Assembly: GCA_977020255.1 (NCBI GenBank)
Contig: CDROCS010002147.1
Location: forward strand, 248,001 to 312,000
Direction: 5' to 3'
Length of the DNA stretch: 64,000 bases
Origin: Obrimoposthia wandeli
Lineage: Eukaryota
Positions 1 through 58,825 of this stretch are shown piece by piece; position 1 is the first letter of the stretch; every line of letters begins with the position of its first letter. Both the position numbers and the translations under genes were made by a program. The notes below the pieces were generated by a model. It was not told the DNA's origin and did not search any database. It saw only the letters and a list, made by a program, of their open reading frames with translations.

Positions 1-1
1 T

Positions 2-6860: not shown

Positions 6861-7224
6861 AAAAAACGCATTTTTTCGTTTCCATAAGTTTTTTTTCTTC
6901 GTTTTTTCCAATATACTTAAAAATATTACATAAGTTCTTTAGAATCTAATTTTTATTAAATTTACTTTACTTTTTGTTGGTTCAAAACTACTTAATGAAA
7001 CCACGAAAAATATTTATAGGTTTGTGAAATGTAAGAACCTTTTGAATTCGTATCATAACATGCTCAAGCCAAATTTAACTATCAGATTGAGATTCTAAAG
7101 TATAGAGGTTCATAGTGTTCGTTAGAGATAGAATAAAACATATATCCTTTACATTTTGATAATATGCCGGATCTATGACGGTCTAGGACTACGACCCCTA
7201 AAAAGGTATGAAAGATATTTATAT

Positions 7225-7312
7225 GAAACATCAGGAAGTGATAAGACTTATTTTACTCTTATACTATTAATAACAACAGATGGTACAAAGATTCCAACAA
7301 TGGTTAGTTTTT
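7225..7312 (+). mobile_element. pogo-like DDE transposase fragment
   Basis: ETSGSDKTYFTLILLITTDGTKIPTMV resembles pogo T.G.EK..FTVVL...ADGTKLPPM. Confidence 0.55.
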
Positions 7313-7959
7313 TAAAAAACTGTAAATTCCTCTTTGTTTCATCATTATTAATTCAAAACACAAAACGTTTCAATTCACATGTATTGCCACGTACAATAAA
7401 TTGTGTATGTCTCGCTTTATATAACCCAGACCACATTACACACCTACGTATGAGCGACAAGAAAGCACGTAAGAGTGCATATCATAATTCAGCCTGTCCT
7501 TGACCTATTTAAATTAATTACTGATTAGACAAATTTACTTAATCAGCGAAATATTATCGACAAAAAGCATTATCTAAGAAATAGTAGTAGAGTGTCTGCT
7601 CATCCTGAACGAAGACTGCTCGATGTGTCAGTGAATACACATTCTTTGTTCTCAAAATCAATGACTCAATGTAATTTTTTATTCAAATTTTCGTAACATA
7701 TTTTAAAACTTACATCTCTTTTAATCTCAAGTTATCATTGAAATGCAGTCTTCACCATAGGATAACCCTAACCTTCTACCTAACCAATTCTAAGGAGCAC
7801 ACCTTCAAAGTCACACATTTAAGGGACAAACACGAACTTAGTCAATAATAATCTATTTAATATATATAGGTAAATAATATTGTTAAAATCATTCTTGCAC
7901 CTCAGATGAACGTAAGTTGCAAAAAGATGCAGCTATTTAATATAAAAACATTTGGTTTA

Positions 7960-9965
7960 AATACATCAATTTCACAACATCCACAACACAAAGAAAAACA
8001 CACACAACTACACACAAAATAGTAACTACTGGATATCCATGCCATACAAGAGTGCGACTTTTACTACCAGATAAGTTGGCAGCTGCAAAAGACACTTTCT
8101 ACAACCTCATAAATGACAATACCATCAGACCATCAGATTCACCATGGTCAACCGCCCTAATGATGAAATAGAAATCATCAGGCGAATGGCGCAGTTGTGG
8201 CGACTACCGCCTTCTTAACGCATCAGCTACACCAGACTCCTACCCATTACCACTCATCAACGATATAACACGTAGAATAGGAGGAGCCACAATATTTTCT
8301 AAATTAGATTTAAAAAGCGCATACCACCACATTCCAGTAGATATAGCAGACATTCAAAAGACCGCCATCATAACACCATTCGGTCTTTTTGAATACACCA
8401 AAATGCCATTTTGGCTTAAAAAACTCCGCCACCACTTTCCAAAGATTAATGGACAACATCTTCCGAAACACAAAGAACGTCATAAACTACATAGACTACA
8501 TCCTGATAGCGAGCAAAAACAAAACAGAACACGAAAAAGACATAAACAATACCATGAAAGTAATAACCGACAACAACCTCACACTAAACAAAGAAAGATA
8601 TGTTTAATACAAAACATCAATAATTTTTTTTAGGATTCACTCTGACTTAACATGGTATACAACCTAATGAGAACAAAATGAAAACAATAAATAAATTTCC
8701 ACCTCCAAACAACATTAAACAACTAAGAGGTTTTTTATGCATGATAAATTTTTATCACAAACATATCAAAAGTTGTGCTCATATCCTAGCCCCATTAAAC
8801 GAAATGATCAAGAATAAACATAAAATAGTGAAAATCAAATTACATCCACAACACATGATACATTTTGATAACGTAAAAGACTCACTTCTCACGCCAAAAC
8901 CCTAACATATCCATTTACCGGCACAAAAATCACCTTAACCACGGATTCGTCAAACACAGCAATAGGAGCAGTTCTAAACCAAACTGATAAAAATAACAAC
9001 ACACTTCCATTATCATTCTTTTCACAAAACTTAAAGTTCACCAAATTAAATACTCACATACGATAGAGAACTTCTCGCCATCAACCAAGCCATAAAACAC
9101 TTCGAAAACATTTTAATCGACAATACATTCGACACATTCACCTACCACAAGCCACTCATACATCCACTCATAATGAAAAACTCTTCATCAAGACAGTCAA
9201 GAAGACAACAAAGAAAGATACATTTCACAATTCAACACATCGATAAATTATATTCCAGGCTCATCCAACATAATATCCAGACCACCTGAAACAATCAACA
9301 ACATAGAACAAATATTTGAAAGACACGAAATAATAAACAGACAAAACATAAACGAACTTCCTCCAAGATCTTTCGACATTACAAATTCGAACGGAATATG
9401 GTACGACATAACAACCCCAGGACTGATCAGAACTATTTTATTAAAAGAACTTAGACAGAAATCCATTAAACACTACCACGACACTCATCATCCAGGAATC
9501 AAAGCTACATTCGATATCGTTAGATAACATTACATTTTGAAGAACATACGAAAAGACGTTCAGAACTACGTCAAGTCATGCACACAATGCAACCTTTATA
9601 ATTCACAAAAACATGTAAAAACCATAAAACTATAAATCACATGCGACACTCCTTTCCACACAATCCACATTGATTTACTTGGTCCGTTACCTCTACATGA
9701 CAAATACACACACTTGCTAACAATGATAGACAACAACACAAGTTGGTACACAGCCACCCCAATTAAAGAAACATCTGCAAAAACAATTATTGTTCCCATT
9801 ACAAGATAGCGATACCACAATAGTTATGTTATATGTGTTTCTTTGTATGTTTTTATTATTGCTATATTGACTAGTAATTAGCACCTAAGCTGCATAATTG
9901 AAGTTTTAATTAAATAATAAAAAATCAATAAATCTTTATCGCTTCCCAACTTCTCAACTACCACA
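7960..9965 (+). mobile_element. Truncated Ty3/Gypsy pol (RT-RNaseH-integrase) with putative 3' LTR; relative of the 33.6-kb element
   Basis: RT: PSDSPWSTALMM, WRSCGDYRLLN, DSYPLP, FSKLDLKSAYHHIP. RH: TTDSSNTAIGAVL, DRELLAI. IN: HHPGIKAT..CTQC, IHIDLLGPLP. Many stops and frameshifts, strongly A/C-rich. No gag or 5' LTR seen. Confidence 0.9.
9827..9965 (+). repeat. Putative 3' LTR of the truncated Gypsy element
   Basis: Begins TG after AGTTA (the 33.6-kb element also has AGTTA|TG at its PPT/LTR border) and ends CA. Shares TGTGTTTCTTTGT and AAAAATCAATAAATC blocks with the 183-bp LTR. No partner LTR is present. Confidence 0.5.
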
Positions 9966-10959
9966 AATCAACCTAACAATAATATATAATAGTTTTTAAA
10001 AAAGTTTAGCTACCTTCTATTAAAAGTAGCCTTATTTTTCACATTTAAATTAATTTTATCTAATTTAACATAATATTTTTTAAAAATTAAATATAAATAA
10101 TGAGTACTATTTAATTATAAATTTAAGTATTATATAATTTACTATATTTAATTACATATGATTATTTACTTATAAAAATATATATAATATAAATTTCTAA
10201 ATTTTATTATGATTTACGTTCTACTTATAAAGGTAAGTATTAGATAATTACTAAAGTAAATTAGTAAATTTTATATAACTATCTTTTGATAATGGGTAAC
10301 AAAAAGAGATACAAAAAATTTCTAAGAAGTTACAAACACTTCAATATTTTAGAAGCAATTATTTGAGCCAGAATTACAAAGTGGTTGATGGGTGAACTTA
10401 AGATACACAGGAGATTTCTCCGCTTTGGTTTGAACTCCAATTCCAATATCTTATTTTTCAGAAAACTTTGTTTAAAATTCTTAAATTAAATAAATAATAT
10501 TATAACTATATGTATTTACATGTATATCTGAGTATGAAACAAATATAGTCAAGTACTGCGACAAGTAGGAGATCATCCATTCTACTTATCAGAGCAATGT
10601 CTCCTACTCTTTTCAACCTCGAATGCCTGCTTCTATGGCAATCCCTTATCTGTTCTAGCCACTCATTCCAGTCGTAGCCTATCCTGTCAAACATACTGCT
10701 AATTCTATCATAGCAGTTAGACCTTTGGATGCTACTGCACCTTCGAATACGACTACTGCTATAAGTTATGCAGCATTTACCCACAAGAGAAGTGTTATGT
10801 ATACTTCAAGTAATGCTGCTGTTTAGGTGTTTAAGAGGAAACTTTAAGGTATTTCAGTCATCGCTACTAAAACAACGTAGCTGAATTATATTCAGGGGCC
10901 AGTTAGATCGCAAATTCGTATGATCTTCTCGTCTCTAGAGCAATAGAGTACATGAATAG

Positions 10960-11680
10960 TTCTATATGCTGGCCTATCTGAAGATGGACGTCCACCTCAT
11001 GGTGGACATATTTACGGCTCCCCAGGAGAAGGATATTATTGACGATGTGCTGGAGCCGCTCAACGTCTTCACTTTTACTAGTTTAAAATATTTTATAATT
11101 TTCTTATTTTTTAATATTTTATTTAATACGAATAATAAGAATAATAGTTATTAATAATCTCTTTAGTACTTATTTAAAATAATGCTTTAAAATAAGAAAT
11201 CTTGTAGTAGTCTCTTTAGTAATTATTTTAAATATGGAACATACTTCTTAAAATCGTTTTAGTTTCATCAATTATTTCTCCTCAAAACTGGACTTACTGG
11301 ACTCGCTGCTATGCACTGATGAACCACTTCATATTCGTCCCGTCATCCCAACAGAAACTCTAATCAAGGTTGAGCTAGTGCAGGATCCAGATATGTATGC
11401 TTTCTTTCGTAAAAGCACCCGAGTGGCATCACTTTTGTCAAAATGTCCAAGGTTGACGCCATCAATGGACAAGATTTATTTTATATTGATGTAAATAATA
11501 TGTATGGTTGGTGTATGAGCCAATTTTAGCGTATGGTGGGATTGTATAGGTGACTGGTACGACTGAGTTAGAAGTTATAATTTTCGAGCTAGCTTATATT
11601 GATCTAAGCTTTATTAACTTTGCTCATATTTTGAAGACGATTTATGTGATCCAGCTGAGCTACATGATTAACTTGATAAG
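10960..11680 (+). pseudogene. Protein-primed DNA polymerase B (Polinton/Maverick-type) relic 1
   Basis: Collinear motifs: LAYLKMDVHLMVDIF (cf. YLKTDVLLLADVF), VELVQDPDMYAFFRKSTR/GGITFV (cf. ELLTD.DM..F....RGG), FYIDVNNMYGWCMSQF (cf. YLDANNLYGWAMSQ.LP), IFEDDLCDPAELHD (cf. ILEVDLEYP.ELHD). Frameshifted and interrupted by AT-rich DNA at ~11060-11280. Confidence 0.8.
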
Positions 11681-12792
11681 AGTAAAGCGGAATAAGAATA
11701 TGAAAACAAATACGGTTGAAAATACGCCACTGGAAAATTTTAAAATAAATTAAACATTTCATGTAGATTGTAATGAATATTTCGAAAAATTTAACTAATA
11801 AACTTTAAAGTCGAAAAACATGCAAAAAGATTCACACACACTTTCTCATAAGATATTTTAATGAAATTATTTTTGTTCTTTCAATTTCGCATATTCAGCA
11901 TTTTTGTTTTTAGTTAAAGCTTTCACTAATAGTTGTGAATTTTTAATTTTAGAGACACATAATATTCACTATGTATTCAATAATAAAAAGATAACTTGGT
12001 TTTGTATATGACTTTTTGAAAAATTAAAAGAGTTTTCTCAGTAGATGTCCTTTATGACAAATAAGGTCACATTATATTTTAAGGTTACTGATTTTAAATA
12101 ATTTATATTTCATGATTTTGAATAATTTGGATATTTTATGATTGGTTTAATAAATCCTTTCGTTTCTTCTTCTTAACTTTTTATTTAAATAATGAATTTT
12201 ATATTAAATTTAATAATTATTAAAGAATTTCCAGTAGTTGGGGTAGTAACCTTCAAATATGATGTAAAGTTCCTTTTGAATAATATTTTGAAAAATTAAT
12301 AGTGCACTTATTATATAGTTTATAACCATATTTATAACGTCTTTTGTTAAATACTAACGAACTTTACATAATAATTACTTATTAATGTTATTTTAACGAC
12401 TGCGTCTGCATTTAATAGACACGCAATACTTTTAAATTTTAATTTGTGAAATTTTCGGAGAGAAAACAGAAAAAGACAATTTTTGTTGAAATAATGTATT
12501 GCTCAATAGGTCTTCAAATTTGATTTGAAAATTTGCTTCCATCTAAATAAAAATTATTAAGATAAATTTAAGAATTTATTTAATAAAAATAATATTTAAT
12601 TTGTATGTTGATTTTTAGTTAACTCACAGCAGAAGTTATCAAATGTGATAAGAAGAGAATCCAAAAATATTTGAATATAATACGTATTATTTTTTTAAAA
12701 ATGTGTACCTCATTTTTCAGATTTCTAAATTAGATATTTTTCTAAAAATTTTGATTGAAATGATTACCCAGTGGCATATACGTATATATGAT

Positions 12793-13762
12793 ATGGATGT
12801 TGCATAATTAATGTCGGTTTTCGATGTCAGAATTTCAATATATATTTATCCTATTTTTTATGATTTAAATCGTGTACCCACATTATTCATTTATTGCATG
12901 GTTATTAAATTATATGATATGTCGAACAATTTTATTATTTTATAGTTTTTATGTCAGAAAAATGAGCCAGAAATTGGTACAAATCGGAATCAAAAACGGA
13001 TAATTCTTTATATGAATATAAATTAGGTCACACAGCTGCAAAAGTATTCAGAAATGAAATTATAGCGTTTGGTGAAGGTTCTCCTAATGGAAGAACCACA
13101 CAAAGATGATTTGAAAAGTTTAAGTCTGGTATCACTGACTTAGAAGATTCAGTAAGTCATATAGCTTCTATTATGTAATGGTGAAAAGAAGATGAAGTAG
13201 AACAATAGGAGACATTCAATTCAACGGTGTAAAGAGGCTGAGGCACCACAGGCAATACTAAGATGAACATATTACCAAAAAGGTTGATAACCGTTTGGTT
13301 GTCTATGGTGAGTATCATACACTACCGCTTTTCGAATGAAGATGAAACAATTAATTCGGACTCATATTGCAACGAAATTTATATATGACACACAAAAGTT
13401 ATTATTAAACAAGCTAGTTCAGATAATTGGAAATATTTATTTTGCATCACGTTAATGTCAAACCACATGTTTCAATTCGAACGCAAGATAAATAAAGGAA
13501 CTTGAAGTATAAAGTCCTTCCTCGTCCTCCATACTCACTGGACCTGGCTCTAACAGCTTTTCATTTTTTATCCTCATTTCTGAATGAGACGAAATTTGAT
13601 AATATAGAAAGTATAAAGTCGGGAGTATGCAACTTCCTTGAATCTAGAATATCTTAGTAAAGTGGTAAATGTATAGAATTTTGATTAATTATTACTTTAA
13701 TGTGTGTATTTATCTTGTATTTTTATTTATTAAAAACCGAAATTGATCATACAGCAAATTTT
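12793..13762 (+). mobile_element. mariner element remnant with degenerate TIRs and internal deletions
   Basis: LYEYKLGHTAAKVFRN..AFGEGSPNGRTTQR*FEKFKSG..DLED (mariner HTH) and VLPRPPYSLDLA (cf. HPPYSPDLAP). Imperfect inverted ends TGCATAATTAATGTCGGTTTT (~12801) and AAAACCGAAATTGATCATACA (~13733). Confidence 0.85.
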
Positions 13763-14783
13763 TATATTATATATGTATGTTATATTAAAAAAAACTGTAA
13801 TCGCATAATAATCATAGAAATCTTAAAAAATACTACATAATATGGAAAATTAAAAAACAGTATATAAATACAACTAAACAGTTAATTTGAGAAATAAACA
13901 GGCTAAATATTGAAATATATCAATAAATTTAGTAATAAAATGTGACTGGTCTAATCATCCTTCAAATAAAACCGTGCATATGTGTGAAATAAATTATCTC
14001 TTACATGTGTGTATATATAAATCTATACATGTCCTGAGACATATATGCTCTTTTCAACTGCACAATAGTAGTTTAATGCAGTGGATGGTACAATGGTCAA
14101 GGTGGCAAACATAAATTCGAATATTAAGCGCATTTGAATTTCATTTAGAGCAATTTTGAACTGGTCCCTACAGTTCTTGGCTTACCATTAAGCTTCTGAA
14201 ATTCCCTAAATTGTCCTTACATATTCCATACCACTGCCAATAAATCCCTATATAGTATTTTTAAGTGTTGTTAAACTCCCCCTTAAAACCATAAAATACA
14301 ATTTAACTCAATTTAATACCCCTTAAAACTGAAAATCGCATAGAGAATCCCCACATGGGGAGGAAGTGCCTGAGAGGCCATCTGAGGGTGAACACGTACT
14401 CTTCGGGTCTGCCGTGGCTTGACGAGAAATATACATACAGGGTCGCGATTTTTTATCTCGCTCCCATCAAGCTTGTAAAAAAATCTGTATAACTATTTAT
14501 ATCAAGATACACTAAAAAAAATTCTATCTAAATCTCTACCCCTCCAACTACACACAGTCAACAAAATCATATCAAAATACTACGATTTTTCGAATAAAAT
14601 AATTGAAAATATTTTTATATTCAATGATTTTCTCGCACACAAATGTAGTCAAAACTTAAGAAAAGACTACGAATTTTCTAATTAGCAATTTGAATAACAC
14701 GCCCTGATTGGATGATCAAAGAGGGTTAATCTGATGTTTGTGTATATAACGAGGTATATTTTCATTATTTTTCATAAATCAAA

Positions 14784-15510
14784 ATGCATTTTTACAACAA
14801 CATATATTTGGACGAAAATATGAAGGTGGAGCTGTATGGAAATACATCTCCAGTCCTACAGCGAATACCACTACCGTCGCAGTACATTGACTTACTTAGT
14901 CAAGACTCGTCGTTGGTGAGCAAAGGAGAAAAATCAGCAAGAAGAGAAGCCCCAGCCAGAGGAGAATCATCAGCAAGAGTAGCAAGTCCAGAGCTGATGG
15001 AGCTGGACGAACCTCTCACCAGCTCGACCACGAGAAAACAATCAATGGCAGCGAGACTCCAATATATCGATCTGACTAATCAGGATTCGATTGAAAATTG
15101 TGAACACTGTACTCCTTAGCGGAATGCAGAAGCCACTGCTCATCCATCAATACCGACGAGGAAGAGGAGCAATCTCTTCGACAATTTCAAGGCTGGTATC
15201 AAACATCAATGTCAGTAAAAACTGATCACGTTGTCTCAGCCAGAGATAGTCCTCGTAACCACTCCGACGAAGAGCTCTTCAGTGATGATGTACCGTCGGA
15301 TCAGGAGAAGGACTTGACTCCATTCATCGACTAGTGGGTCAATTTCATTCCACGTTTTCTAATCAATAACAATCCTGTAGTCAGATATGACTCAATAATT
15401 GCTGAGTTAGATGATGATGAGTGGAATCTCTTCACATACGACTGGGATGCTCTTTACCATTGCTGCTACACCGACTCCGATTCAAACCGCAGACGATATG
15501 GTGTCTGAAT
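14784..15510 (+). pseudogene. Decayed acidic/Ser-rich ORF of unknown family directly upstream of pPolB relic 2
   Basis: ORF 14784-15119 continues, after a stop and frameshift, as a long acidic frame (SINTDEEEEQ..SDEELFSDD..ELDDDEWNLF). It is richer in GC than its flanks and has two QYIDL(L/T) motifs. No family recognised. Confidence 0.4.
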
Positions 15511-16393
15511 TCAGGGATTGGGCAAAATGCATACCTGTTGAATTCAAGGTGTATGCTGACTTTGAGTCAATTCTAGTATTGCATGACCAGTATGAGAGTA
15601 TTCACCTACTGGCTTCGCAGGACTATTATTCTTAGGCCCCAATATAACCCAGTACAATGAATTTTCTGGTTCAAATTGTATTTTTGATTTTATGTTAAAA
15701 TTATAGGAGTTAGGAACAACTATTGTCAACCCGTGGTATGATCTTAATGATCATCAAGCAATGATCATGACTGGCATATACTGGGTTTATTTTAATTCTA
15801 GTAGATCTTGTCTTTTCGTGTAAAACTTTAGCAGAATATGGGCTAGATCCAGTGGTGGGATTCAAACTGTTTAGCAACCGGTTCGCGCGAACCGGTGCGA
15901 ACCATTGAATCCCACGACTGTGTAAAACACTCGATATAATTTATCATTAAAATATATTTATCAATTTTACTTAAACGGTTGAACCATTGTTATATGTAGA
16001 AGGTTCATTTCACCATATTATATATACATGAAAAAATCTGTGCTCGGATTTTTTTATGTTTAAATATTAATATATTGTAGTTAAATGTTTGCTGAATTTT
16101 AATAATAGTTTCGAAATTTTGACTTTCCCATTAATATTAATATAAGAATAAATAAGAATAAATAATGCGTTCAATCAACGAATTAAAAAATTATATCTTT
16201 TTTATCCAGATGATTATGTACGTTTCAGTCGAAGAAGGTAGTCCAGGAACCGGTTCAGGCGGTTCTGCGAACTTTTATATTTTTAGGAACCGGTTCGCGC
16301 GAACCGGTGCGAACCCTTGAATCCCACCACTGGCTAGATCCCATACAATTCTTTAGTTTACCTGGTCTTTCATGGGCAACAGCAATTCGGACT
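15500..16393 (+). pseudogene. Protein-primed DNA polymerase B (Polinton/Maverick-type) relic 2, heavily deleted and split by a hAT MITE
   Basis: IPVEFKVYADFESILV (cf. P.VIYADFESIL). Removing the MITE and one TSD restores EYGLDPIQFFSLPGLSWAT (cf. YGLDP.HY.TLPGLSWDA). Confidence 0.78.
15850..16332. mobile_element. hAT-type MITE, copy 1 (483 bp)
   Basis: TIRs CAGTGGTGGGATTCAA / TTGAATCCCACCACTG. Perfect 8-bp TSD GCTAGATC (15842-15849 and 16333-16340). Non-coding. Confidence 0.95.
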
Positions 16394-16399
16394 TTATCA

Positions 16400-17290
16400 A
16401 TTTAAAAGAATGTTGTTTGGATTCAAAAATGCTCTAGCTACATATCAAAGAATTATGGATAATTTATTGAAACATGTTCCATCTACTGCGGCCTTCCTAT
16501 ATGATATTATAGTTTATTCTAATTCATTCGAAAAGCAGATCGATATACTAAATCGCGTGTTCAAAAAGTTGCAAAGCGCTAATTGAACGATCAACCCAAC
16601 CAAAATTAAGATGATGATGTTTAAAACAGAATTTTTCGGGAAATTGGTTGGGAATGGAGAATTGTCACCAATAACAGATAAAGTGTCTGTAATAAGGAAA
16701 TTATCAAAGCCAAAAACAAAACAAAAAAGTACGTTAGTTTATGGGAATGATTAACTACTATAGAGCACACATACGTAATCTAGCAATTATTGTGTCTCCC
16801 TTGAATGATTTACTTAACAAGAAAATGACTAATACTGTAAAGGGGAACAGTGAATGTGAGAAAAGTTTTATAAGATTTAAAGAATCCTTGACAACATCAC
16901 CGATATTAAAATTAACTGATCATTCTAAGCAATTTTTTATCCAGACAGATGCCTCCGATAGAGTTGTAGGCACCGCATTATCTCAATATTTTGAAGATCA
17001 ATTGCTTTCAGATCGAGAAAGTTAACGGAAACCCAACAAAGATGGTCAACCATTGAAAAATAGTTATACGCAATAATTTATTCCATTGAACAATTCCATT
17101 ATTACATTTATGGAAGGAAATTTATTCTGCAGTCAGATCATAAACCACTATCATGGTTGAAGACAAATAAACTCAAAGGGAACAAAATAGCCAGATGGAA
17201 CTTGCTATTACAAGAAATTCAAAATTCAACACAAAAAAGGAGTAGAAAACCAGAATAGTTACTTCCTAGTCGTATATGGGAAGAAACTAG
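16400..17290 (+). mobile_element. Ty3/Gypsy RT-RNaseH relic (separate family, not A/C-biased)
   Basis: MLFGFKNALATYQRIMD, MGMINYYRAHI, FFIQTDASDRVVG, QRWSTIEK*LYAI, QSDHKPLSWL, IARWNLLLQE. Stops and frameshifts present. Confidence 0.9.
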
Positions 17291-18979
17291 CCAAGAAGAA
17301 GACAATTTTGATATTAAATTAGAAATGATTAATAATATTTAATGTTCTTTTTAAGTGTTTGTTTTAATATTGAGAATTGAGTACGAAAAATATATTTGAA
17401 TTTTTAAATTACATTATCGTATTAATCTCTTGATCAAGTTTACTTATACGAAATATTTAATTGCTCCAATTCCGATCAAAATTTTTTTAAATGTAGTAGA
17501 GCTAATTTTAGAAGTTAAATATATTTCAATAGTAAATTCTATATTTAGCTTGATCTACTTTTCATACAACATTCTCATATCATCCGATAATAGAAAATAA
17601 AGAATTTTATGGATTTTACTTCTAAAAATTATCAATAAAAGTTGTCATGTTAAATAATAATATTTTTATATAATTTATGAGATTATATAATTACAGACAA
17701 ATTCACTTAAACCGGATCAATTTTTGTGCACGAAATATATTTTTCATCTTTAACTTATATTTGAAATCCGGATAAACAGGAAGGAATTTCTGTATTTTTC
17801 ATGTTTTGAAATTAACTGAAACTGATCTATTGAGATTTTTAAATTTAATCATTAAATATAGTTTTAATTTGGCAAATACAAAATCAGTTAAATAAAGTAT
17901 TTGTGTATCATATAAAAAATGTCATAAAAATGAAAGCAATTTAAGGTTAGACATATTTTTCTAACAACCTCTTTTTATATTTCTATTTTTTAGAAACTTT
18001 TTCGGGATTGGCCAAATTTAACTGACATGAATTTTTAAAAAATATAATTTAGAATGTGCAAAAGAAAATACATTTAATATGAGTTGAAGAAGTCATCAGA
18101 AATTACAGAGTACATAAAATAAATGATCAGAAAGACAAAACAAAACATGTATTCTACATTAACCATATCTGATATTTAGAAACAAAGACATGTGACCTTG
18201 CCATTGCAGATTTGCTCTCTGTAATATAGGCTAAATACAATTAATGGAAAATTTCATGTATATTTTGTACAGTTCTGACGCTAGGCCCTTATGACAGGTA
18301 TTACACAGAGAACAGTAAAATTCTAAAATTACACATTTTAAAAGTCCTCATTTAGCAATAACTTAAAAAATTCAAAAAACTTTTTATTTGTGACAAAAAC
18401 AACTCACAAAATTATATTTCTTAAAATAAAATTCAAACGTAAAATAAAATTCAACAAAATTTAAAGCAATCAACACAATGAAATTCAAAATTTTGAATTG
18501 ATAGTGGCCACTGCCTTTTAGTCAAATGAATATATCTATTTAAATATTTATTTTTATACTAACTTTTATTTTAATAGAATTTTTCGGACAGAGTGAAAGT
18601 TTTAAAGCAATTGCTATCGCACTAGTGATACTGCCACTGATTTTGTAATTTAAAGTTTTTTACTGTACAAAATTACTTTATTCGTTAGAGGCAGATTTTT
18701 TTCATGGATAAAGGTGATCCTATTTTAGCAAATTTGACTGTATAAAAAACTATAAAAACCATTTTATTCAAAGAATTATTAAAGTTATTAGAGCAGATTA
18801 GTAAAGTAGATTATACCCTATATTTTTATGTATCTACAAATAATTATTTTAAAGCATTATGACAAATTTATATGACATAATTAAAATACAAATATAGAAT
18901 ATTCATTCATATTATATTATATCTAAAATCACTATTACTTATTTAATATATTACATATTTTTAAAATGTATTAAACAAA

Positions 18980-34568: not shown

Positions 34569-35474
34569 ATGGCACACAACACACCATCCACACCAGAGTT
34601 TTTCCTGGACGAAAATCAGAGCCCTAATAAATGGTTATCACTCACTCAAACAATCTTAAATTTGCCGGGGACTCACAACCCGAAACACATCACTCACAAA
34701 ATCATCTCATCACTACCCACCAACACACTCAATGACATTGCACAGGATCTCATCGACATTCACAAACACACTTCACCTCTAGATCAGATCAAAAACATTC
34801 TAAACCAACACTACACCATAAATAAAAAGGAGTTATTTGAAGACTTATTTAACTCACCTATCACTTTCACATAAAAACCCACCCATCTCTTAAACACATT
34901 GAAGACTAAACTGGAACACATTCAACCCAACATCATAAATTACACTCACAACTCATTACTCCAAGAAGTCTTTTTCCTACAACTACCCCCAGACACAAAA
35001 AAATACTTACAACGTTGGAAAACAAATCATTAGAAGAACTGGCCACAACAGCAGACAAACTACATGCATACAACCAACCCACCTCACAACAAACATTACA
35101 CATACAAAGAAACCCAACAAACCAAAACGAGTCAGAAATAGACAATTTAAAAATGATCATACACCAACAGAACCAAACAATAACATCACTGACAGAAAAG
35201 ATTGACAAACTTACAACGACCTATACACAACACACCACCAACAGACACAGATCATAATCATCAAATTACGACAACAAACAACAACATACCACAAACAGAT
35301 ACTGATCACCATCACCATATTACGACAATAAACCACAATACACTTATAACAGATACAGATCACCCTAACCATACAATAACAATAAACTACCCAATCCAAA
35401 CTACTGCTATTACCACAATACATACGGCACCAAAGCCATCAAATGCACCTTGCACATACCCAAAAAACTGCTAA
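34569..35474 (+). pseudogene. gag: gag (disrupted)
   Basis: ATG at 34569; in-frame TAA at 34872 in FT*KPTHLL. EVFFLQLPP / SLEELATTADKL span a frameshift near 35010. RS-rich repeats and C-terminal YCYYHNTYGTKAIKC (CxYH..FG.KA.KC knuckle of this Gypsy clade). Confidence 0.9.
35240..35390 (+). repeat. Three ~54-bp repeats in the gag C-terminus
   Basis: ACAGA(C/T)AC(A/T)GATCA recurs at ~35241, ~35295 and ~35349, encoding NR(H/Y)RS..S.Y repeats in the gag frame, with stops at probable Arg/Ser codons. Confidence 0.8.
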
Positions 35475-35479
35475 AATCA

Positions 35480-38398
35480 ACAGTAAGCGCACCAATTACC
35501 GTTGATTGCTTCAAAATATTCACGGTGCACTCACAAATCAACAACATTCATTTCCTCATAGACACTGGCTCTTCAGTTTATATAATACCACACACCATCA
35601 CGCCAATACCTAGACAACGCACCACACCTACCACACTCATGGCAGCGAACCACACACCAATAAAACTTTCGGTACGACTAACCTAACAATAACCTTAGAC
35701 AACATCCTCTACAAATAGGATTTTGTCATAGCAGACATAATACAGCCAATCATCGGAGCTGACTTTCTACCCAATTTCAACCTAATCATCGACTGCAAAA
35801 ATAAAACACTAATACGAAACAAAACATCAACACATACAAACCTCCACACCCATACCACAAACTGGAAAACACATAACCAAAACGTATTAGGCACAATATA
35901 TACAAAAACAGACGCGACAAACACACTACAATCAACTATACCACTCCAAAAACAAAACAACTTCACTCACAAAATCATTACAAACGGACGACCATGTCAC
36001 GCCAAAGTAAGGCAACTTCCACCTAATAAGCTAGCAGTCGCAAAAGACACATTCATTAAGTTAGAAAAAAATGCATTATTCAAAAGTCCGACTCACCTTG
36101 GTCATCAGCTCTCATGATGCAACAAAAAAAGGATCAAACATGGAGATGCTGCGGAGACTACCGAATGTTGAATGCTATGACAACACCAGACTCGTATCCA
36201 CTTCCACTCATAAAAGACATCACCACACGCCTAATTCATGCGACAATCTTCAGTAAAATAGATCTCACATCAGCTTACCACAACATTCCTATGCACACAG
36301 AGGACATCAACAAAACAGCAATCATTACACCATTCGGACTCTGCGAATACATCAAAATGCCATTCGGTCTAAAAATTTCCGCCGCCACGTTCCAAAGGTT
36401 CATGGATCACATATTCACAAACACGAACAACATTGTAACGTACATAGACGACGTCCTAATAAGAAGCGACAACCACGCCAACCACATCAAAGACATTCAA
36501 AAAGTAAAAGAAATACTAAAAAACCACAACCTCGAGATCAACACCAAAAAATGCCTTTATCATCAAACACAAGTAGAGTTCCTTGGACATACCATATCAC
36601 ATAACCAAATCAAACCTCTACCAAACAAGACAAACACGATAAACAACATGCCAATACCAACCACGGCTAAAAAAATCAGAAGCTTCCTAGGAATGGTGGA
36701 TTTTTACCACAGACACATACCTAACTGCGCAGGAACACTAGCCCCTCTACACGACTTAATCAAAAACACGCACAAACAAGCAAAGATCACACTAACCAAC
36801 ATCGACATAAAAAAATTCAATACAGCCAAACAAGTACTTACAGACGCTACAACCTTAAATTTCCCATTTCCAAACGCGCCACTTACGCTCACCACAGACA
36901 CTTCAAATCACGCAATAGGAGCAGTTTTAAATCAAATAACAGAAACCACACCACAACCAATCGCATTCTTCTCAAAGAAACTGAAAATACACCAGACTAA
37001 ATACTCAACATACGAGAGAGAATTACTGGCCATATACGAAGCAATAAAATACTTCGAAACACATCTAGAAGGCAACACTTTCACAATTTACACGGATCAT
37101 AAACCCCTTCTACAAATCATCACCATGAAAACACCCTCGCCACGCCAAATCAGACAGATCAACTACATCTCGCAATTCAATTGTACTCTCAAACACATCG
37201 CTGGAAACACAAACATCGTAGCAGACACACTCTCACGCATACCTCAAAACAACAACGTCATAACGCAAAATATATTTCTCGGACGCGGACATCAGACACA
37301 AACATGACATATCCGAATTCACTCGAGGAAACTTACATCTCACTAAAACAAACGACATATGGTACGAAACCACTACTCCCGGTTTAACTAGAGTCATACT
37401 CCCAAAAAACGACATGCATAAAACACATCCATGATTTCCATCATCCCAGCATAAAAGCAATATTTGACATAATCAAACAAACTTACATATGGCCATGCAT
37501 GTGCAAAGACATCCAAATATTCGTTAAACAATGCATCAAATGTAACAACAACAAATCACAAAAACATTACAAAACAATTCCATTCACCGTCACTAGCAAA
37601 AACGCATTCCACACAATTCACATTGATCTCGTCAGACCATTACCTTCAAACAACTCGTTCACACATCTCCTGACAATAATAGACAACAACACAAGCTGGT
37701 TTTCCGCCATACCCATCAAAGACACATCATCAACATATATATGGAACAAAATATACAAACATTGGTTCATCACATACGGTTTCCCTTCAAAAATAATCAC
37801 AGATCAGGGACGGCAATTCATCAGCAAAACATTCAATGACTGCTGCAACAATAAAAACATCAAACACACAACCACGACCACATACAACCCACAATCAAAT
37901 AGCAAAATAGAACGACTATACCGCCAAATTAAGGAAAGTTTGACATGCTTCGACAACCCAAAGAATTGGTAACACAATTTTCACAACTGCATCATGGGTC
38001 TCAGAAACACCCCTCACCTATGGGACAACAAAAGTCCCGTACATCGAATATTCAAAGCACACGTACCACGCATATACAATAAACACGACACGCAAACAAA
38101 CACACAGATGAAACCCAAATCTATCACAACACACTCACACGCATACATAAAAATACACAACCATCACTCACTAGACCCAAAATACCAGGGTCCATACACC
38201 ATCATCCGACACAACACCAACAATACAACGCTCATTAACAGAAACCAAAAGCCAACGCTCATCAATAACAGAAATTTGAAAATCACCCACCCTGAGAAAC
38301 ACAAAAACCTACCACAAACACACAAACACAAGACAGTCAAATTCACCACAGTAACACGTCCGACAAACATCACTCATTCCATAACTCCGTTATCTTAG
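35480..38398 (+). pseudogene. pol: pol (protease-RT-RNaseH-integrase), frameshifted
   Basis: PR: FLIDTGSS, IIGADFL. RT: WRCCGDYRMLN, YIDD. RH: TTDTSNHAIGAVL, YERELLAI, YTDHKPL, ADTLSR. IN: HH..CIKC, IHIDLVRPLP, ITDQGRQF, YNPQSNSKIER. RT-RH (36114-37307) is still one open frame. Confidence 0.95.
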
Positions 38399-51340: not shown

Positions 51341-53469
51341 GATAACCCAAATCATTTTAACAACAAAAAAACCTTGTTAAAAATATTAAATTAATCTTTC
51401 ATTTTAAATAAACACTTTTTTAAATAAACAAAATATTAAATCTCGTTTCAACATTAATAGACTGAGTAAAGAAAAATAATTTTAATAAATTACCTCAACA
51501 ATTACTAAAACTTTATTCACTTTATAATATATTTCAATGTCAAGCTAGAGAAGTATATTTTGAAATGTCTAATCAAAAAAATTAAATAGAGTGATCTGTT
51601 TGGGAGGCATTTAAGTTCAAATTATTAAAGATGATGAATAATATTAAGATTAATTAAATTTCGTCTATTTATTAGGTTTTGAAGTTGTTTAAAAATGAAA
51701 AATACCATCAACATCTAAAATGTAATTATTCATATTTCAAATCCCAAATATCTCAATTTGTTAACCAGGGAGCGATGGATAAATTAAAGACTCGTCAGTA
51801 AATAATTTGTAAAGATAAAATATAAAATTTGTTAAATGATAATAAGTAGAACTATTTTTCAAAGTTAAAACTTCATGATTTGTATATATTAAATCGGAAT
51901 CGAAAAAGCATTTTAATCTAATGGTAGCAGTGCCAAATTCCAATTTATTTGACAAATATATTCACATTAATAAGTAATGTGGAATTTTCAAAAAATAATT
52001 TGAATGCTGATGACAACTTTGAGTAGTAGCACTGTCGATGAGATGGCTGGGTGCTGTGGGAGGGTGTAACGTCAGTTGGGATCTCTGAAAGTGGGCAGAT
52101 GGCAACTTCACCGGGATCGGGAGAGAGCTGAGCAAACATTCGATTATATTTAGTCACTGCACTGACCCTTGTTTGCTGTTGACAATGAAAATCAAGAAAA
52201 ATGAGACTAGGCGTTATGGGCCACGCGCTCAAATCGAAGTTTGGCTTTATTGATAGCTTCATTAAAAAGAAAATATTAATTTGATAAAAGTATTAAGGTA
52301 TCGTTTCACAGATTCAAACAAAATCCACTATATAGGACTATTTCGAAAATGCGCAACTCGTACACGAATGGAGCATTTGGATTTTCCAACGCTCTTTCTG
52401 CTGGATGTATGGATATATGTTTAGATTTATATCCTTAGCTGATCTAAATCATTCTGTGGAATGACTTTTTCTAGGAATATTCTTTGATTCGATTAGTTTG
52501 TCTCTATCACAGGGAATGAAATGTAAGTGAACCTAAATTTTATAATACTCTTATGAACAAATATACCGAAAATAGTAAAATTCAAAAGAAATTAAATAAT
52601 CAAAGCACATAAAAACTATAAAGTGTATAGAGGACAACGCATAGTATCTTTAATTATTTATTTCACACTTCAAACACAACAAAAAGAAACGTTTTGGTGA
52701 ACACCACGCCTTAACAAGTCAAAATCTCAAATGAAATGAAGCTCAAACTTTGACTCCTATAAAAAAATATCATTTGGGTCAGAGATACCTGACATGAGCC
52801 ATGTAGACAACAAGAGCTTTTTGAGTGGTCAATAACTATATGTATATAAATAAATAATGTTTGCAGACAATTATATGTTTTTCCAAATTATAAAGAGTTT
52901 CATTTAAAATTTATTGTACAAATTTTTAATGTAACATTCTTGGATTTTTATTCTGAAATATGTAAAACAATAAAAAATTAAATATTTTACTTTATTTCTT
53001 TTCAATCTTTTTTAAATTTTAATCTTAGAATTAAAATATTGTTTCAACTTAATTTTTACATAGTAAATATATTATTATTACTTTTATCTGTGTATTTTAT
53101 CGAAATAGAAAATTATGTCCCTGTCAAACACAGGAGAATGACACAATTATTATTATTAATGATCAGAAAAGTAAACCAGTTGAATGCATTTTTATTATTC
53201 CTAACGATTTTCGATGGAAAAAAGTAAAATAGGAGATTCATCAGAAAACACAACACCCATTATGTGTTGTTAAAGATAAAAACTATTGGAAATCAAATCT
53301 AAGAAAATACCAGAAAAGGTCAGTTAACCTATTCAAGAAAACGAATGCACCCAGATTAATTATTTACTATCTGAAATCAATTGGTTTATGAATTAGTTAA
53401 AGCAAACATAATTTATTTTCTAACTACTTGGCTAGTAGAAGCAGAGTTTTCTATGATTACATATATATT

Positions 53470-53910
53470 AGTAGGTGGATGTGTCCAGTCTAATCCACAC
53501 CCCCTCCCCCCCTTGTCCTTTAAAACCGTGCATGTGTGTGGAGTGAAATTTCGTGTAGGTGTGTGGAGTGAAATTTCACTCCACACACATGCACGATTTT
53601 AAAGGACAAGGGGGGGGGTCCCAAATTTTTTTTTCGCACCTCTAGGCGCGAAAGGCTCGGGACTCGTATATGTCACAGACTAGCTTGCGTGATGGCCGAA
53701 TGTCTCGCTCTGGTGTATATCACTAACTACCTCGGGTGATATTAAATATTAAATTTTTTGGGACCCCCCCCCTGTCCTTTAAAACTGTGCATGTCTGTGG
53801 AGTGAAATTTCACTCCACACACCTACACGAAATTTCACTCCACACATGCACGGATTAAAGGACAAGGGGGGAGGGTGGTGTGTGGATTAGACCGGACACA
53901 TCCACCTACT
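53470..53910. mobile_element. Non-autonomous fold-back element with Polinton/Maverick-type ends (441 bp)
   Basis: Both ends read AGTAGGTGGATGTGTCC. TIRs 53470-53625 and 53757-53910, 131-bp spacer. 6-bp TSD TATATT (53464-53469 and 53911-53916). Each arm is itself palindromic. Confidence 0.93.
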
Positions 53911-56569
53911 TATATTCACAAATAAACGAAACAACATGAATATAAATGATCGAGAAAAGCTACGATTGAGACCAAACAAGGTTATTAAAAATGAATTTTC
54001 GTTTTGTGCAAGAAAGACATGTTAAATAAATACTTTTTTATCGAGAAACTTGTTTTGTCTACTATTTTTAATTAATGTTACATAAAATTTTTATGGAATT
54101 ATTTAGGCTAAAATTTGTGATCCACGGCTGATTTAATAAATAGTGTATAAGTCATTCAAAAACTAAAGAGGAAGCTACACAATCATTGCGGTTCCATAGA
54201 ATGAGTTAAAATGATGAATAAAGAGATTTAAACAGTCAAAATTTTGCAAGGTTGAGGCACAACATAAACCCAACAAATTGAGTCTTTCAAATGTTGTTAA
54301 AGATTGCTTCTCATATTCGTAATTTGATTTCTGTATTGATAAATTTTTAGATTAATGGGGATCGTTCTTTGTCACATTTTGCTAATAATTTGTTCATTTT
54401 TCAGTCCTTCTGATTGTAGAAATGTTAGAACTAGTAATTAATTATTTTCTATTAAATAAAGTTTGTATAAATGGATTGTAAAAACCTGATTTCCTACAGT
54501 CAAATATCACCTTTAAGTGGGATTGTTCTGTGCCAACTTCCCACTATTTAATAGTCAATTCCCGACCGACTTTGAATGCTTCTTTTACCGACGTATTTTA
54601 TCTGATAATGTAATTGCGAATCATTCTAATATCTGGTGGAAGATAATTGATCTGATTATTAGTTCTGATGTTCAGAATTCTTTGCGAGGAGCGTAATAAT
54701 TACAAATTGAATGGCTTCAAGTGATTGGGCTAATATCTCAGCAGATTCTGAGATATTATACACCAAATTTTGTTAATTTATAAATAAACTTTTACTCGAA
54801 ATTTATATTGATTTTTTTCCCTTTTTCTACTAAATTAGTTTTATCAAACTAATTTTTATCACCATCAAATAAATATATTCAAAAATTTAATTTTTTTATT
54901 TATTAATCATTTTAGATTTTAAATAGGTTTTATAAAATTAAATATAAATTAAAATGTTTAATTATAATATTTTTCAAGTAACAATTTTATAATTTTTATA
55001 ATAAATAATTTTATTTAATTAAAAATTAAATGTTATTATTTCTTTAATTACTAGAAAATTAACAGAAAAAATCAACATAAAAGCTAAATAAATATTTATT
55101 GAAAAATGATTTATGTTATTTTTTTTATATTTACAATGTATTATAACAAATAATTCTAGGATTTATTATGATATTTTAGAAATAATTTTAAATTTAAATG
55201 TTAAATTTATTTGTTTTGATATTTTTCTTCACTTTGCATTTTGTGACGAATATTTTCATTCTAAAAATTTACATTTATTTTATTTAAAAAATAATCAATT
55301 ATGCTTCTAAAAAATGCATATAGCTAGCAATCTCCAATTGATCATGTGCAAACGACTACTGATTTTTATGAGATTTTATTTCCAATCAACAGACCAAGAC
55401 GGGCCTAACGAGAATAAGATAGATTCAGAGGCTTTTCCAGAATTAGATCAGATGCGGCCAAGCATGAATAGCCAGAATGTCACGCTTGGCCAGACTTGGA
55501 TTTTGAGGAGGATATGTCAAGAAATCTAAACACAAAATAATATAATTTACGAAATACAATACTAACATTCATAAAAATGGCTGAGTTCTTAATAGAGTTT
55601 TTTAAATATTTTACAAAAAAATATAAAAAACAGTTTTAATAAACTTAAGTAAATATATTTACATTTAAAAAGCACAATATTCTTCGCGGTTCTTATATCT
55701 CTTTCTGTCAAGACACATTCTAAACCTTTAAAATATTTTAATAATAAATTACCCATTCCTCTCCGATAATTAGCCATATACCGTTGTTCAATCCTTAGAA
55801 GCCTTAAAACTATCGATCTTATAAGATTTTATTAACTTTAAAGTCATGATTTTTACGTTTTCTTATTGCTTCATATTTTTCATGATTTAGACTTAGTTTT
55901 TTATATTGGGGTTTATACATCAAAAATTACTTTAAAATGATTAATTAAAGCTCGCTGACCAATTTTTAACTAAACTTTTTTAATTTTTATATTTAGTTTT
56001 GTTTATAGTAAAGAGACAATAAATACTATCAATATACATTAAACTTTCACGTTTCCTCCTTTTATATTTCATATATGCTTGAAACTTTAAAGGATTATAC
56101 TACAGATTTTAACAGGAATTATTATTATTATAGGTTTATGTAGGATTATGGGTTGTAAAAAACCAATCAAAAATATAGAAAATATAGAAATTAAACGTAT
56201 TCAATCTCTAAGTATCTTAGTGAATATCAACTAGAAGGTTAATTTGTATATGTTATCGGTGAAAATTGAAAGAAATTGTATATTTTAACCCGAATTGTTT
56301 CAGCAGTCAGAAATTTAAAGTTTGATACACTATGTGTTAATGTATTTGCTAGTGGAAAAGGGAATATTCATAGTATTAAAGATTTTGATTATAATTGTGA
56401 AGTTGAGTCTATTGAATTATTTCGTGAAAGCTTTTTACAAACTAGTATATGTTTTTGATTTGATTTTTGAAAATGTTTGGTGATTAATAATTTATTATAT
56501 AATTGTTAATGATTTTTTAGTTAAACGAAAAGTAGAATATACTAGAGTGAATATACTATAATTTGATAT

Positions 56570-57360
56570 AATAAATATGAGAGTGAAAGATTAAGGTTGT
56601 TATTATTAAATTTTAAAGAGAATCAATATAACATTTATTTAGCTAAAGCCGTTTTTATAAACATGATGATGATTAAACTGATAAAGTAAAATTTATATAA
56701 TGTAAAGGTGCATTATCTGAATGGGAGTGGTATCTTATATATATATATATATATAAATAATTTCCTACATGTTCATTCCTTTTGAAATTAAATGTTGCAA
56801 ATGTACCAATAATTGAAAATAGTGTGAAGAAAATTGATTTTGATACATAACCATTGAACGGAAAATTATATGGATCAAGTATGAATTATAAAAATTACCC
56901 GACATATTATATGCAAATAGTTCACTAAATTTAGAAAACGAGGATGATAATGATAATGAAAAAATTTAAACATAATGTTTTATTGAATATCTTATAACTA
57001 TAAATAAAAATCAAGTCAAAAATTTAAAACGGTTCTTCACTAAAGATAGAATAAAATCTGTTTTAAAATATAAAATTATGTGACATGGAGAATACAAATC
57101 AACATATGAAATGATTTATGATTTAACATATTTAGAAACAAAACCGGATAAATATATAAATATACTTTCAAACTTTTGAAAAAAACCTGAATGATTAGTA
57201 TGTTTAAATAATAATATTGAAGTGATATTTCTTTCTTGTGGGCATGTGAATACATGTATATCATGTATATCATGTTCCAGAATGTTACATTCATGTTCAG
57301 TAGGTGGATGTATGATTGAATGGAGAGTAATAAATGTACAATGTCATGGTATAAACAATT
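56570..57360 (+). pseudogene. iap: Decayed intronless inhibitor-of-apoptosis (IAP) gene: BIR-UBA-RING
   Basis: BIR: YESERLR..LAKAVF / TDKVKFI*CKGALSEWE...FPTCSFL. UBA-like: FTKDRIKSVLKYKIM*HGEYKSTYEMIYDL. RING, in frame with the UBA: E*LVCLNNNIEVIFLSCGHVNTCISC(ISC)SRMLHSCSVG, giving the IAP spacing Cx2Cx11CGHx3Cx2Cx6C after removing a 9-nt duplication. Confidence 0.85.
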
Positions 57361-57580
57361 AAAATTAGTAATATATACAAAAATGGATAAAAATGATAAA
57401 TTAGTTGATGATACGGTTGAGGAAATTATAAGTGAAACAATAAATGGAGTTAAATACTTTTCTAATTTTAATAAAGATATTCGTGCTCATGTTAGAGAAA
57501 TTGTTCGAGCACATGTCTATAGAGATCTTATGAAACTTAAAAATGATTCAGTATATAAGATAGTAGGACCCATTTTGTAG
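57320..57580 (+). other. Short ORF between IAP and ATPase; its last codons are the ATPase start
   Basis: 86 aa, no recognised motif. Ends in MKLKNDSVYKIVGP, interpreted as the ATPase N-terminus. Confidence 0.3.
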
Positions 57581-57935
57581 CTAAATTATTATAAAACAAT
57601 TAAATATTTAATAGTCGATTTAATAAGATTTATTGGTATTATGGTGATGTTTGCGAATCTGGATTAACGAAAAGTTATTTATGTAAACTGTCACTGTTTA
57701 TTTCATTACTCAAAACCTATTTCATCAAGGTGGTAAACATAGAACACGTAATTTAAACGTACATTACTTGGTTTTGTTTAAGAATCCGCGCCAAGCATTT
57801 CCAAATAACAGACTATATTTGAAAAATTCATTTCAAAATACAACTGAAAATTATCATGGTTACTTGTTTCTTGATTTTACACAGTATGTTTTGATGAATT
57901 GAGAATAATAACCGATATTTTCAACAACTGTATGG
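57530..57935 (+). pseudogene. Polinton/Maverick A32-like DNA-packaging ATPase relic
   Basis: IVGP / THFVAKLL (Walker A core missing), FNKIYWYYG (cf. RIIWCYG), TVYFITQNLFHQGGKHRTRNLNVHYLVLFKNPR (cf. SVIYITQNLFHQG...R.ISLNAHYIVLFKNPRD), YHGYLFLDFTQ (cf. PHGYLLLDL.Q). Confidence 0.85.
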
Positions 57936-58599
57936 TATATAAACAAAAATAAAGTAATTTTAAAAATAAATAGTATTTCCGGTCTTAAGTGGTAGTAAGT
58001 TAGTAGTTAAATCTTTAAAACATAAAATAAAAAAGTTAGGTATTTTATTTAATCTATACACTTTAGTTTTTAAAATCATTTTATCATGACTTCTCATTTA
58101 AGCACTTTGGATATGTTATGTGCTCTTCGTGTTAACCTTAAAGAAGACATATTCAAACTATACACTAATCAATACTTCTCAATTTATTATTCTCCAGAAC
58201 TTTGTTAAGCTAGAATTTTAAAATTATTTCACTATAATCATAGTAAGAATTTATTTTTGAATTTAATTTTAAATATTTTATTAGCTATGAGAATTATTCA
58301 GTATCATCATCATCATGATACTGAATTTTGTAGTCATATGAATAAATGATTTTAATTGTTAAAATATTTATTATTATTATTTTGAATATTTTAAATATTC
58401 ATTGCCACAGGTCTAAGGTGCTCTCTGATCATGCAGGGCTTCCCTCTTCAGAGATTCCTTAAGGGAAAAATGGGCATTTAAAAAAAAAGCTCGGAAACAT
58501 TTAAAAGGCGCAAAATTTAAAATTCGTATAATTAAAACAACATTTTTGTAAAGAACGCGAAAATTAAAAATTATTAAAGTCTCAAAATTGTGCATACTG

Positions 58600-58825
58600 C
58601 CCCTGTGAAATTTTGCAGTAAAAGGTACCTACCGGGAGGGTCAGTATGTATGATTTCAAGACCTGATGAATTTGAGTAATTTTTGTGTGTGTTTCGAGTA
58701 AATTTGACTATATATTAGCCGGCATGACTAATGCATAGTGTTTTTTAGCCTTATAGCGACAATGAACGGAGCATTCCCCCTTGGGGGGCTTTGGTACTTT
58801 GGCTGGAGCGACACTATATACTACT
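58600..58825. mobile_element. Candidate right terminus of the decayed Polinton-like element
   Basis: GC-richer block ending ...CACTATATACTACT (reverse complement AGTAGTATATAGTG), then AT-rich DNA. No matching left TIR found in the window. Confidence 0.35.

Follow-up and report, generated by a model that had tools for sequence, protein, structure and literature searches.

An IAP gene in Polintons of Obrimoposthia wandeli and its very probable common lineage with the IAP of a Burro1-like retrotransposon

A decayed Polinton fragment with an IAP remnant

The window (the whole stretch of 64,000 nucleotides of Obrimoposthia wandeli DNA that was analysed) contains a decayed and internally deleted fragment of a Polinton (Maverick/adintovirus-like element) at positions 55985-58825. 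From around 55985 onwards, the window is homologous to other Polinton copies, with a TBP-like gene, an IAP gene, a small ORF and a packaging ATPase in this order, followed by the right terminal repeat (Table 1). With natural open-frame copies as tblastn queries, the IAP was matched at 56487-57359 (60-65% at the amino acid level, E 9e-69), the ATPase at 57527-57955 (E 1e-29) and the TBP-like remnant with an E-value of 1e-14. The IAP-ATPase region contains no long ORF, and six-frame reading likewise reveals the two decayed genes.

The initial annotation of this DNA had described an IAP remnant with a BIR and a RING next to a remnant of an A32-like ATPase. Both identifications are borne out by the open-frame copies, which match Pfam BIR (E 3.6e-14), a C-terminal C3HC4 RING (zf-C3HC4_3 / PF13920, E 3e-11) and Pox_A32 (E 6.8e-7). 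This two-gene picture was nevertheless incomplete, as it missed the TBP-like remnant directly upstream, the small ORF separating IAP from ATPase, and the right terminal repeat. It also had the IAP starting at 56570, while the start instead lies near 56472. The distance between IAP and ATPase, given as ~200 bp, is 167 bp, and is this short only because ~150 bp of the intervening ORF (88-94 aa) has been lost.

Table 1. Features of the Polinton fragment in the window. Strand is given as + or, where it does not apply, as a dot.
Feature	Position	Strand	Remarks
TBP-like gene, decayed	56073..56420	+	Exon 1 tail to ~56115, exon 2 from 56134
Shortened intron remnant of TBP-like gene	56116-56133	+	Site matches GT-AG intron of families A1, A2 and B
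Type-A IAP, decayed	56472..57362	+	Many stops and frameshifts; 80-81% nucleotide identity to open-frame copies
(AT)n run	~56737-56756	.	Stands in place of BIR zinc-His segment
UBA-like bundle of IAP	~57010-57140	+	
RING of IAP	~57190-57330	+	
Small Polinton ORF (88-94 aa), 5' part	57383..57527	+	3' part deleted in window copy
A32-like packaging ATPase, decayed	57530..57950	+	tblastn; Pox_A32 on open-frame copies
ATPase breaks	57567-57571, 57689, 57786	+	Walker A core lost (57567-57571); Walker B region lost (57689)
Remnant of small unnamed ORF	58033..58250	+	Found beside right end of A2 elements
Right terminal inverted repeat region	58386..58825	.	Left ends in L003 and L013 match it in inverted orientation

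The IAP remnant retains the layout of an N-terminal extension, one BIR, a short remnant at the site of a second BIR (BIR2), a UBA-like bundle, a RING and an extended C-terminal tail. It differs from one open-frame copy by eight frameshifting indels. The BIR zinc site (CxxC..H..C), which is above the Pfam cut-off in open-frame copies, is broken here; as the initial annotation had noticed, an (AT)n run replaces the His segment. This copy itself cannot work. At the first ATPase break 19 bp of Walker A are gone, at the second ~150 bp with Walker B among them, and at the third 30 bp. Loss of the Walker A core at a microhomology had also been recognised before; the deletion stands, and the length of the flanking microhomology varies with the reference copy, measuring 5 bp in comparison with one copy and 1-2 bp with two further ones.

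The integrase, capsid and protease genes that normally precede the unnamed ORF beside the right end are missing, and pPolB is absent from the fragment. The right end reads ACTACT (58820-58825), and the left end of another copy (L013) reads AGTAGT. No left end or target site duplication (TSD) partner was found within the window. The fragment belongs to the family that we call A2, with which its ATPase groups at 100/100 in the backbone tree, and other internally deleted A2 copies resemble it.

The window holds further decayed mobile DNA. Fragments of Polinton pPolB or integrase genes lie at 10963-11091, 15507-15605, 16298-16393 and 17412-17486, and two decayed gypsy-type pol regions (RT, RNase H and integrase, by eye) at 8172-9527 and 34910-38398. 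An acidic ORF at 14778-15119 recurs near Polintons at other loci, and a short palindromic repeat at 53438-53917 is present in many of the Polinton-rich loci fetched (74-97% identity).

IAP is a regular gene of several Polinton families

IAP is a regular and genuine Polinton gene in this genome. Exact 22-base motifs of the two IAP types, A and B, occur 1,572 and 1,613 times, respectively, and the reversed control motifs do not occur at all. In a DNA search of the genome in which 40 of 3,521 candidates were scored, matches besides the window were mostly 70-90% identical. We sampled 20 places in even steps from the first 100 listed of the 1,572 type-A motif matches: ATPase lies downstream in 19, TBP upstream in 19, and one or the other in all 20, with a full IAP frame in five. 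Homology searches gave a set of 104 small loci, a few being the same place twice, which split into 43 type A, 37 type B, 20 Burro-type and four others. Polinton genes flank every type-A locus (43/43; ATPase downstream in 32, TBP upstream in 41), and 33 of the 37 type-B loci have TBP or ATPase downstream.

The better-preserved elements, of family A1, are 13.4-17.4 kb long and encode the TBP-like protein, IAP, ATPase, integrase, minor and major capsid proteins, protease and pPolB. They end in terminal inverted repeats (TIRs) of 550-600 bp with AG..CT termini, and a clean 6-bp TSD is present in four of eight A1 stretches. The pPolB of one family-A copy matches PF03175 (E 1.5e-13), the integrase is of retroviral type (PF00665, E 8e-12) with a chromodomain and is deleted in the window copy, and the adenoviral-type protease gives a weak match to Peptidase_C5 (E 0.008). 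The major capsid protein reaches 0.98 to Atlas clusters with PF21738 in 22-30% of their members; the minor capsid gene is presumed to be one from its position and general likeness. Given this gene set together with the TIRs and TSD, the IAP-bearing elements are Polintons. Young copies still have open frames for capsid and ATPase.

We distinguished four Polinton families, three of which carry IAP. Families A1 and A2 share the order TBP, IAP, small ORF, ATPase, and family B has IAP, TBP, phosphatase, small ORF, ATPase. Family C (three loci) has TBP, small ORF and ATPase without IAP; its small ORF is similar to that of A2 (blastp E 3e-8). The backbone tree unites IAP-bearing B with IAP-less C (93/100), and AU tests of the backbone do not reject groupings of A1 with A2 (0.23) or of A with B (0.13). 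The IAP genes of A1 and A2 are 84-96% identical at the DNA level (dS 0.19), whereas dS between these families reaches 2.4 in the ATPase and saturation in the TBP exon. This contrast shows that diverged lineages have exchanged or homogenised their IAP region. Recombinant Polinton copies were also seen (L006, L053 and L339).

IAP has evolved under purifying selection, with dN/dS of 0.29-0.35 in six of seven pairs; the seventh consists of near-identical young copies with one synonymous and 11 non-synonymous differences. A ratio of around 0.3 is a weaker constraint than that on the ATPase (0.07-0.13).

The TBP-like gene is short and present in all four families; open-frame copies match Pfam TBP (E 3e-12) and TBPs in the PDB (E 8e-11), and its product could redirect host transcription. 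A GT-AG mini-intron interrupts the gene in A1, A2 and B, always at one and the same codon position (L051 950-990, L199 555-592 and L067 2597-2635). No canonical splice joint was among the joints listed for four contig runs of one sample, which has no bearing on expression. The family-B phosphatase (L075:5967-6701, minus strand) is of the dual-specificity type without HCxxGxxR, and hence a pseudophosphatase (dN/dS 0.44, one pair).

Some copies are rearranged. Two family-B elements of ~14.3 kb (L071-L073, G000:C609:145794-160102; L074-L076, G000:C777:599822-614306) have inverted arms of 3.6-4.1 kb that are 99.8-99.9% identical and duplicate IAP, TBP and phosphatase at both ends, with no pPolB seen inside; the C609 element is nested in a family-A element. 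At L087-L088 (G000:C3084), TBP and a truncated A2 IAP form a tandem array with a period of ~7.15 kb.

The nearest relative is the IAP of a Burro1-like retrotransposon

A search with shark XIAP found IAP within frames of more than 1,000 aa in the same genome. These belong to a giant LTR retrotransposon encoding Gag, env (PF24664, in frame), protease, IAP, protease, RT, RNase H and integrase, with ubiquitin-like and BCL2-like segments recognised by eye and a phosphatase ORF downstream. This layout agrees with that described for planarian Burro1 (PMC6431247), one of the Burro1/GYPSM1 giant gypsy elements. The layout also makes a triclad the probable host. Identity with the published Burro1 B-IAP is presumed from this layout rather than from the Schmidtea Burro1 sequence.

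The IAP of this element (hereafter Burro IAP) is the best non-Polinton match among all fetched proteins, at 124-163 bits in blastp against at most 100 bits for any other, and is the closest relative of Polinton IAP with a known genomic context. With 100/100 support, Polinton IAPs, Burro IAPs and two ENA proteins form a clade that excludes 50 cellular-type IAPs and four other viral ones. For this tree, the 100 eligible rows were thinned at random to 50, the named ones being retained; most rows are unnamed and assumed to be cellular. A second tree of 14 rows recovered the same clade, also at 100/100, and Polinton types A and B unite within it at 99/96. On this similarity, Polinton and Burro IAPs almost certainly represent one lineage. 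The trees took in no flatworm host IAP, so the clade could partly reflect divergence of the host lineage.

The two ENA proteins, P0120 (15,990-bp contig) and P0122 (1,864-bp contig), are unnamed stand-alone members of this lineage with a fuller BIR2, and share its extended C-terminal tail. P0120 had no match in IMG/VR, where the IAP alignment found three unrelated viral IAP loci. A homologous-protein search with one IAP copy gave none among 385 candidates, and longer proteins matching a five-sequence IAP alignment were absent among 6,786 candidates, which is weak evidence.

Domains and predicted role of the Polinton IAP

Open-frame copies keep all four BIR zinc ligands and a full RING. An AF2 model of the protein has a pLDDT of ~90 over the BIR (31 only for a single-sequence model), and the modelled BIR lies within ~2 Å of the DIAP1 and XIAP BIRs. 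The best PDB folds are cIAP1 (3t6p), DIAP1 BIR1 and the XIAP BIRs, and the Atlas neighbours are BIRC7/XIAP-like clusters (0.94). The UBA-like segment of the initial annotation was harder to place: the UBA profile PF21290 has no match on the IAP proteins or in the genome. An HMM that we built from 117 UBA segments of other IAPs scored 18.6 bits on type B and 11.0 bits on type A (best of 300 shuffles, 3.7 and 0.7 bits, respectively). Together with hhalign (95.3%) and a confident helical bundle in the AF2 model, whose alignment included cellular IAPs, this supports the assignment, although the MGF loop is absent.

Polinton IAP has a BIR, a UBA-like segment and a C3HC4 RING in the same order as cellular RING IAPs (XIAP, BIRC7, cIAP1, DIAP1/2). 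It differs from these in sharing only 25-30% identity, in its extra N-terminal region, reduced BIR2 and missing MGF loop, in a tail five residues longer and in lacking introns. Of 126 cellular-type IAPs, 113 stop 13 residues past the last RING Cys; in Polinton IAPs this stretch is 18 residues long. C-terminal extension harms XIAP RING dimers. Most cellular BIRs (382 of 415) and every Burro BIR (29 of 29) have an acidic residue six positions before the zinc His, a part of the peptide-binding (IBM) groove in XIAP; none of the 33 type-A and 35 type-B BIRs has it (loci not de-duplicated). Burro IAP has this residue with an Arg at His-1, and Polinton IAP the reverse; the groove positions are uninformative about the direction of transfer. 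From the lost groove residue, missing MGF loop and extended tail, canonical IAP activity may be lost or changed.

By analogy with its relatives, an anti-death role for Polinton IAP is nonetheless probable. According to PMC13465017, which cites Lee et al. Dev Cell 2026, Burro1 B-IAP guards stem cells from being killed by caspases. Encoded by an intact copy, Polinton IAP would be a ubiquitin ligase that delays the death of the cell in which the element replicates. It would act mainly through its RING, since the acidic groove residue is missing from its BIR. In planarians, Polintons and LTR elements are reported to be PIWI targets that are desilenced during differentiation (PMC8532177), and elements carrying IAP might survive better when de-repressed in stem or germ cells.

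Alternatively, whatever its route, the Polinton protein may no longer inhibit apoptosis but have been repurposed as an E3 ligase or decoy, with targets in immune or stress signalling or among the proteins of the element itself. All 68 Polinton BIRs read have lost the groove residue, BIR2 and the MGF loop are gone, the tail is extended, and the neighbouring genes (the TBP-like gene and the dead phosphatase) look like regulators. Set against this are the retained zinc ligands and RING of the open-frame copies, a modelled BIR that still matches those of DIAP1 and XIAP, and the reported anti-apoptotic activity of the sister protein (Burro1 B-IAP; PMC13465017). We consider such repurposing rather unlikely.

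Origin and direction of transfer

We favour acquisition of IAP by a Polinton from a Burro-like element, with a rough probability of 0.55. A Burro-like element would first have captured a cellular BIR-BIR-UBA-RING mRNA, in frame between its two proteases, the normal IAP stop being lost in the polyprotein. A piece of such an element would then have entered a Polinton beside the TBP-like gene, gaining its own start and stop, and BIR2 would have been reduced afterwards, by half in family B and wholly in family A. The single BIR of Polinton IAP is a reduction from two. The initial annotation had proposed that a Polinton captured a host mRNA; an ultimate origin from a cellular BIR-BIR-UBA-RING IAP stands, but direct capture by the Polinton is not supported, the nearest relative of known context being the polyprotein IAP of a Burro1-like element.

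Four observations count for transfer from Burro to Polinton. Polinton IAPs and the Burro polyprotein have the read-through C-terminus VRN[VI][KR]FH in common, as would be expected had fusion removed the stop. Loss of BIR2 is stepwise: Burro keeps the frame, B half of it and A none. A second gene is shared, as the degenerate family-B phosphatase scores 63 bits to the Burro phosphatase and at most 40 to PDB phosphatases (a comparison without planarian host phosphatases, for which the host search returned repeat copies only). Finally, family C has the same backbone without IAP, with TBP next to the small ORF. Other observations count against this direction. The IAP trees leave it open, with Burro and the ENA proteins grouping at 71/59 inside the clade and AU tests rejecting no arrangement (p 0.28-0.38); the B+C grouping of the backbone fits ancestral presence and loss as well as gain; and the extended tail also occurs in P0120 and P0122.

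Polinton and Burro could also have captured the same host IAP separately, the host gene having since been lost or missed. Neither IAP has introns, P0120 and P0122 are stand-alone proteins of this lineage, and no flatworm host IAP entered the trees. Adintoviruses also take up cellular IAPs on their own, as in L100, whose canonical IAP is outside the clade. However, a survivin-like ORF and a BRUCE-like exon are all that was found of host BIR genes in the genome (G000). Of the 20 best loci for a canonical IAP RING, 19 were Polinton copies and one was unparsed, and a single donor more easily accounts for both the extended tail and the second shared gene. No host RING-IAP or intron-bearing parent surfaced among the best 87-150 of 7,000-18,000 candidates scored, in a search swamped by repeats and prone to missing split exons. 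We regard separate capture as improbable. The only non-mobile BIRs seen are two probable host genes, L223 (G000:C694:435314-435805) and L224 (G000:C6834:49145-49381), which we take to be survivin-like and BRUCE-like, respectively, from general likeness.

The reverse route, in which an ancestral Polinton with a two-BIR IAP donated the gene to Burro, is likewise doubtful. Retroelements readily capture RNA, and the domains that Burro has captured include BCL2, ubiquitin-like and env (PMC6431247). IAP occurs in most of the Polinton families, ancestral presence is compatible with the backbone tree, and the P0120 contig is Polinton-sized. On the other hand, BIR2 is missing wholly or in part from every Polinton IAP read in G000, while Burro has kept it, and a stand-alone gene has no evident reason for losing its conserved C-terminal end. 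Moreover, a Burro BIR has been reported in Schmidtea, and Burro1 expansion across two triclad families (PMC13465017; PMC6431247). An independent processed pseudogene that came to lie beside a Polinton ATPase by chance, as the dead window copy without a left end might suggest, is refuted by Polinton genes at 43/43 homology-search and 20/20 motif-sample type-A loci; the linkage that the initial annotation proposed holds in other copies.

Returning to transfer from Burro to Polinton, a fuller account can be offered only tentatively: a giant envelope-bearing retrotransposon may have handed IAP and phosphatase, both as genes for host control, to a Polinton in the same planarian host, after which the IAP cassette may have swept between diverged Polinton lineages and helped their expansion to thousands of copies.

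Comparison with known elements

The initial annotation knew of no standard pairing of IAP with a Polinton ATPase; IAP had in fact already been reported in adintoviruses. Homologues of Bcl2 and IAP were observed by Starrett et al. 2021 (PMC8502044), where IAP figures in a single sentence and as a label on two maps, and IAP is listed among the genes of leafhopper adintoviruses in a figure legend (bioRxiv 10.64898/2026.07.28.741253). Maverick expansion has been reported in some planarians (10.64898/2025.12.11.693146). Our elements resemble the adintoviruses and Polintons described in these sources in pPolB, rve integrase, two capsid proteins, protease, A32/FtsK ATPase, a length of 13-17 kb, TIRs and an accessory IAP. 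The relevant text of the adintovirus reports gives neither domain structure nor origin of the IAP, which here belongs to a divergent lineage common to an LTR retrotransposon. Here the gene is also found in more than 3,000 motif-bearing copies. It has a TBP-like gene with an intron as its neighbour and is exchanged among lineages of Polintons. Burro IAP differs from it in being part of a polyprotein, in its fuller BIR2 and in having the acidic groove residue, which Polinton IAP, encoded by a gene of its own and with a single BIR, lacks.

Baculoviruses, nudiviruses and other large DNA viruses also carry BIR and RING proteins (BFVD matches), but over full alignments most of these are 12-20% identical to Polinton IAP. 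The viral IAPs that were sampled, L091 and L093, fall among cellular IAPs, outside the Polinton-Burro clade. L091 (IMGVR_UViG_3300010885_091098, 7164-11056) is a GC-rich contig resembling a large DNA virus, with two adjacent IAP genes and one weak UBA hit. Of 83 outside loci, namely the best 80 of 180 from JGI metagenomes and the three from IMG/VR, one had Polinton genes. This metagenome contig, L100 (Ga0194135_10005289, 1-8059), has a canonical BIR-UBA-RING IAP alongside genes for pPolB, integrase, an ATPase-like and a major-capsid-like protein. It is a separate capture of IAP by a Polinton, not of the Polinton-Burro lineage.

IAP in adintoviruses/Polintons and the Burro1 IAP are thus already published, separately. 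We found no paper on an IAP lineage common to both, in a search covering sources other than subscription journals, Repbase reports and Supplementary Fig S1 of Starrett et al. What is new is the lineage shared with a retrotransposon, the signs of direction, the exchange of the cassette between Polintons, and the scale.

Implications

That these Polintons are infectious does not follow from finding an IAP. The infectious lifestyle considered in the initial annotation is not needed, because Burro1 IAP is reported to act from endogenous copies (PMC13465017). The finding is a concrete example of a class I retroelement and a virus-like element of class II exchanging a gene, with donor-like and recipient-like forms of IAP both still abundant in one genome. 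The presence of IAP-bearing and IAP-less families in the same genome lets the effect of an anti-death gene on element expansion be tested. Burro1 IAP has been reported to protect planarian stem cells and aid regeneration (PMC13465017), and hundreds of open-frame Polinton copies, judging from 5/20 sampled type-A copies, would be a second and unnoticed source of such a protein. If the tentative account of transfer and spread given above is true, two unrelated classes of selfish element would run the same anti-death module in planarian stem cells.
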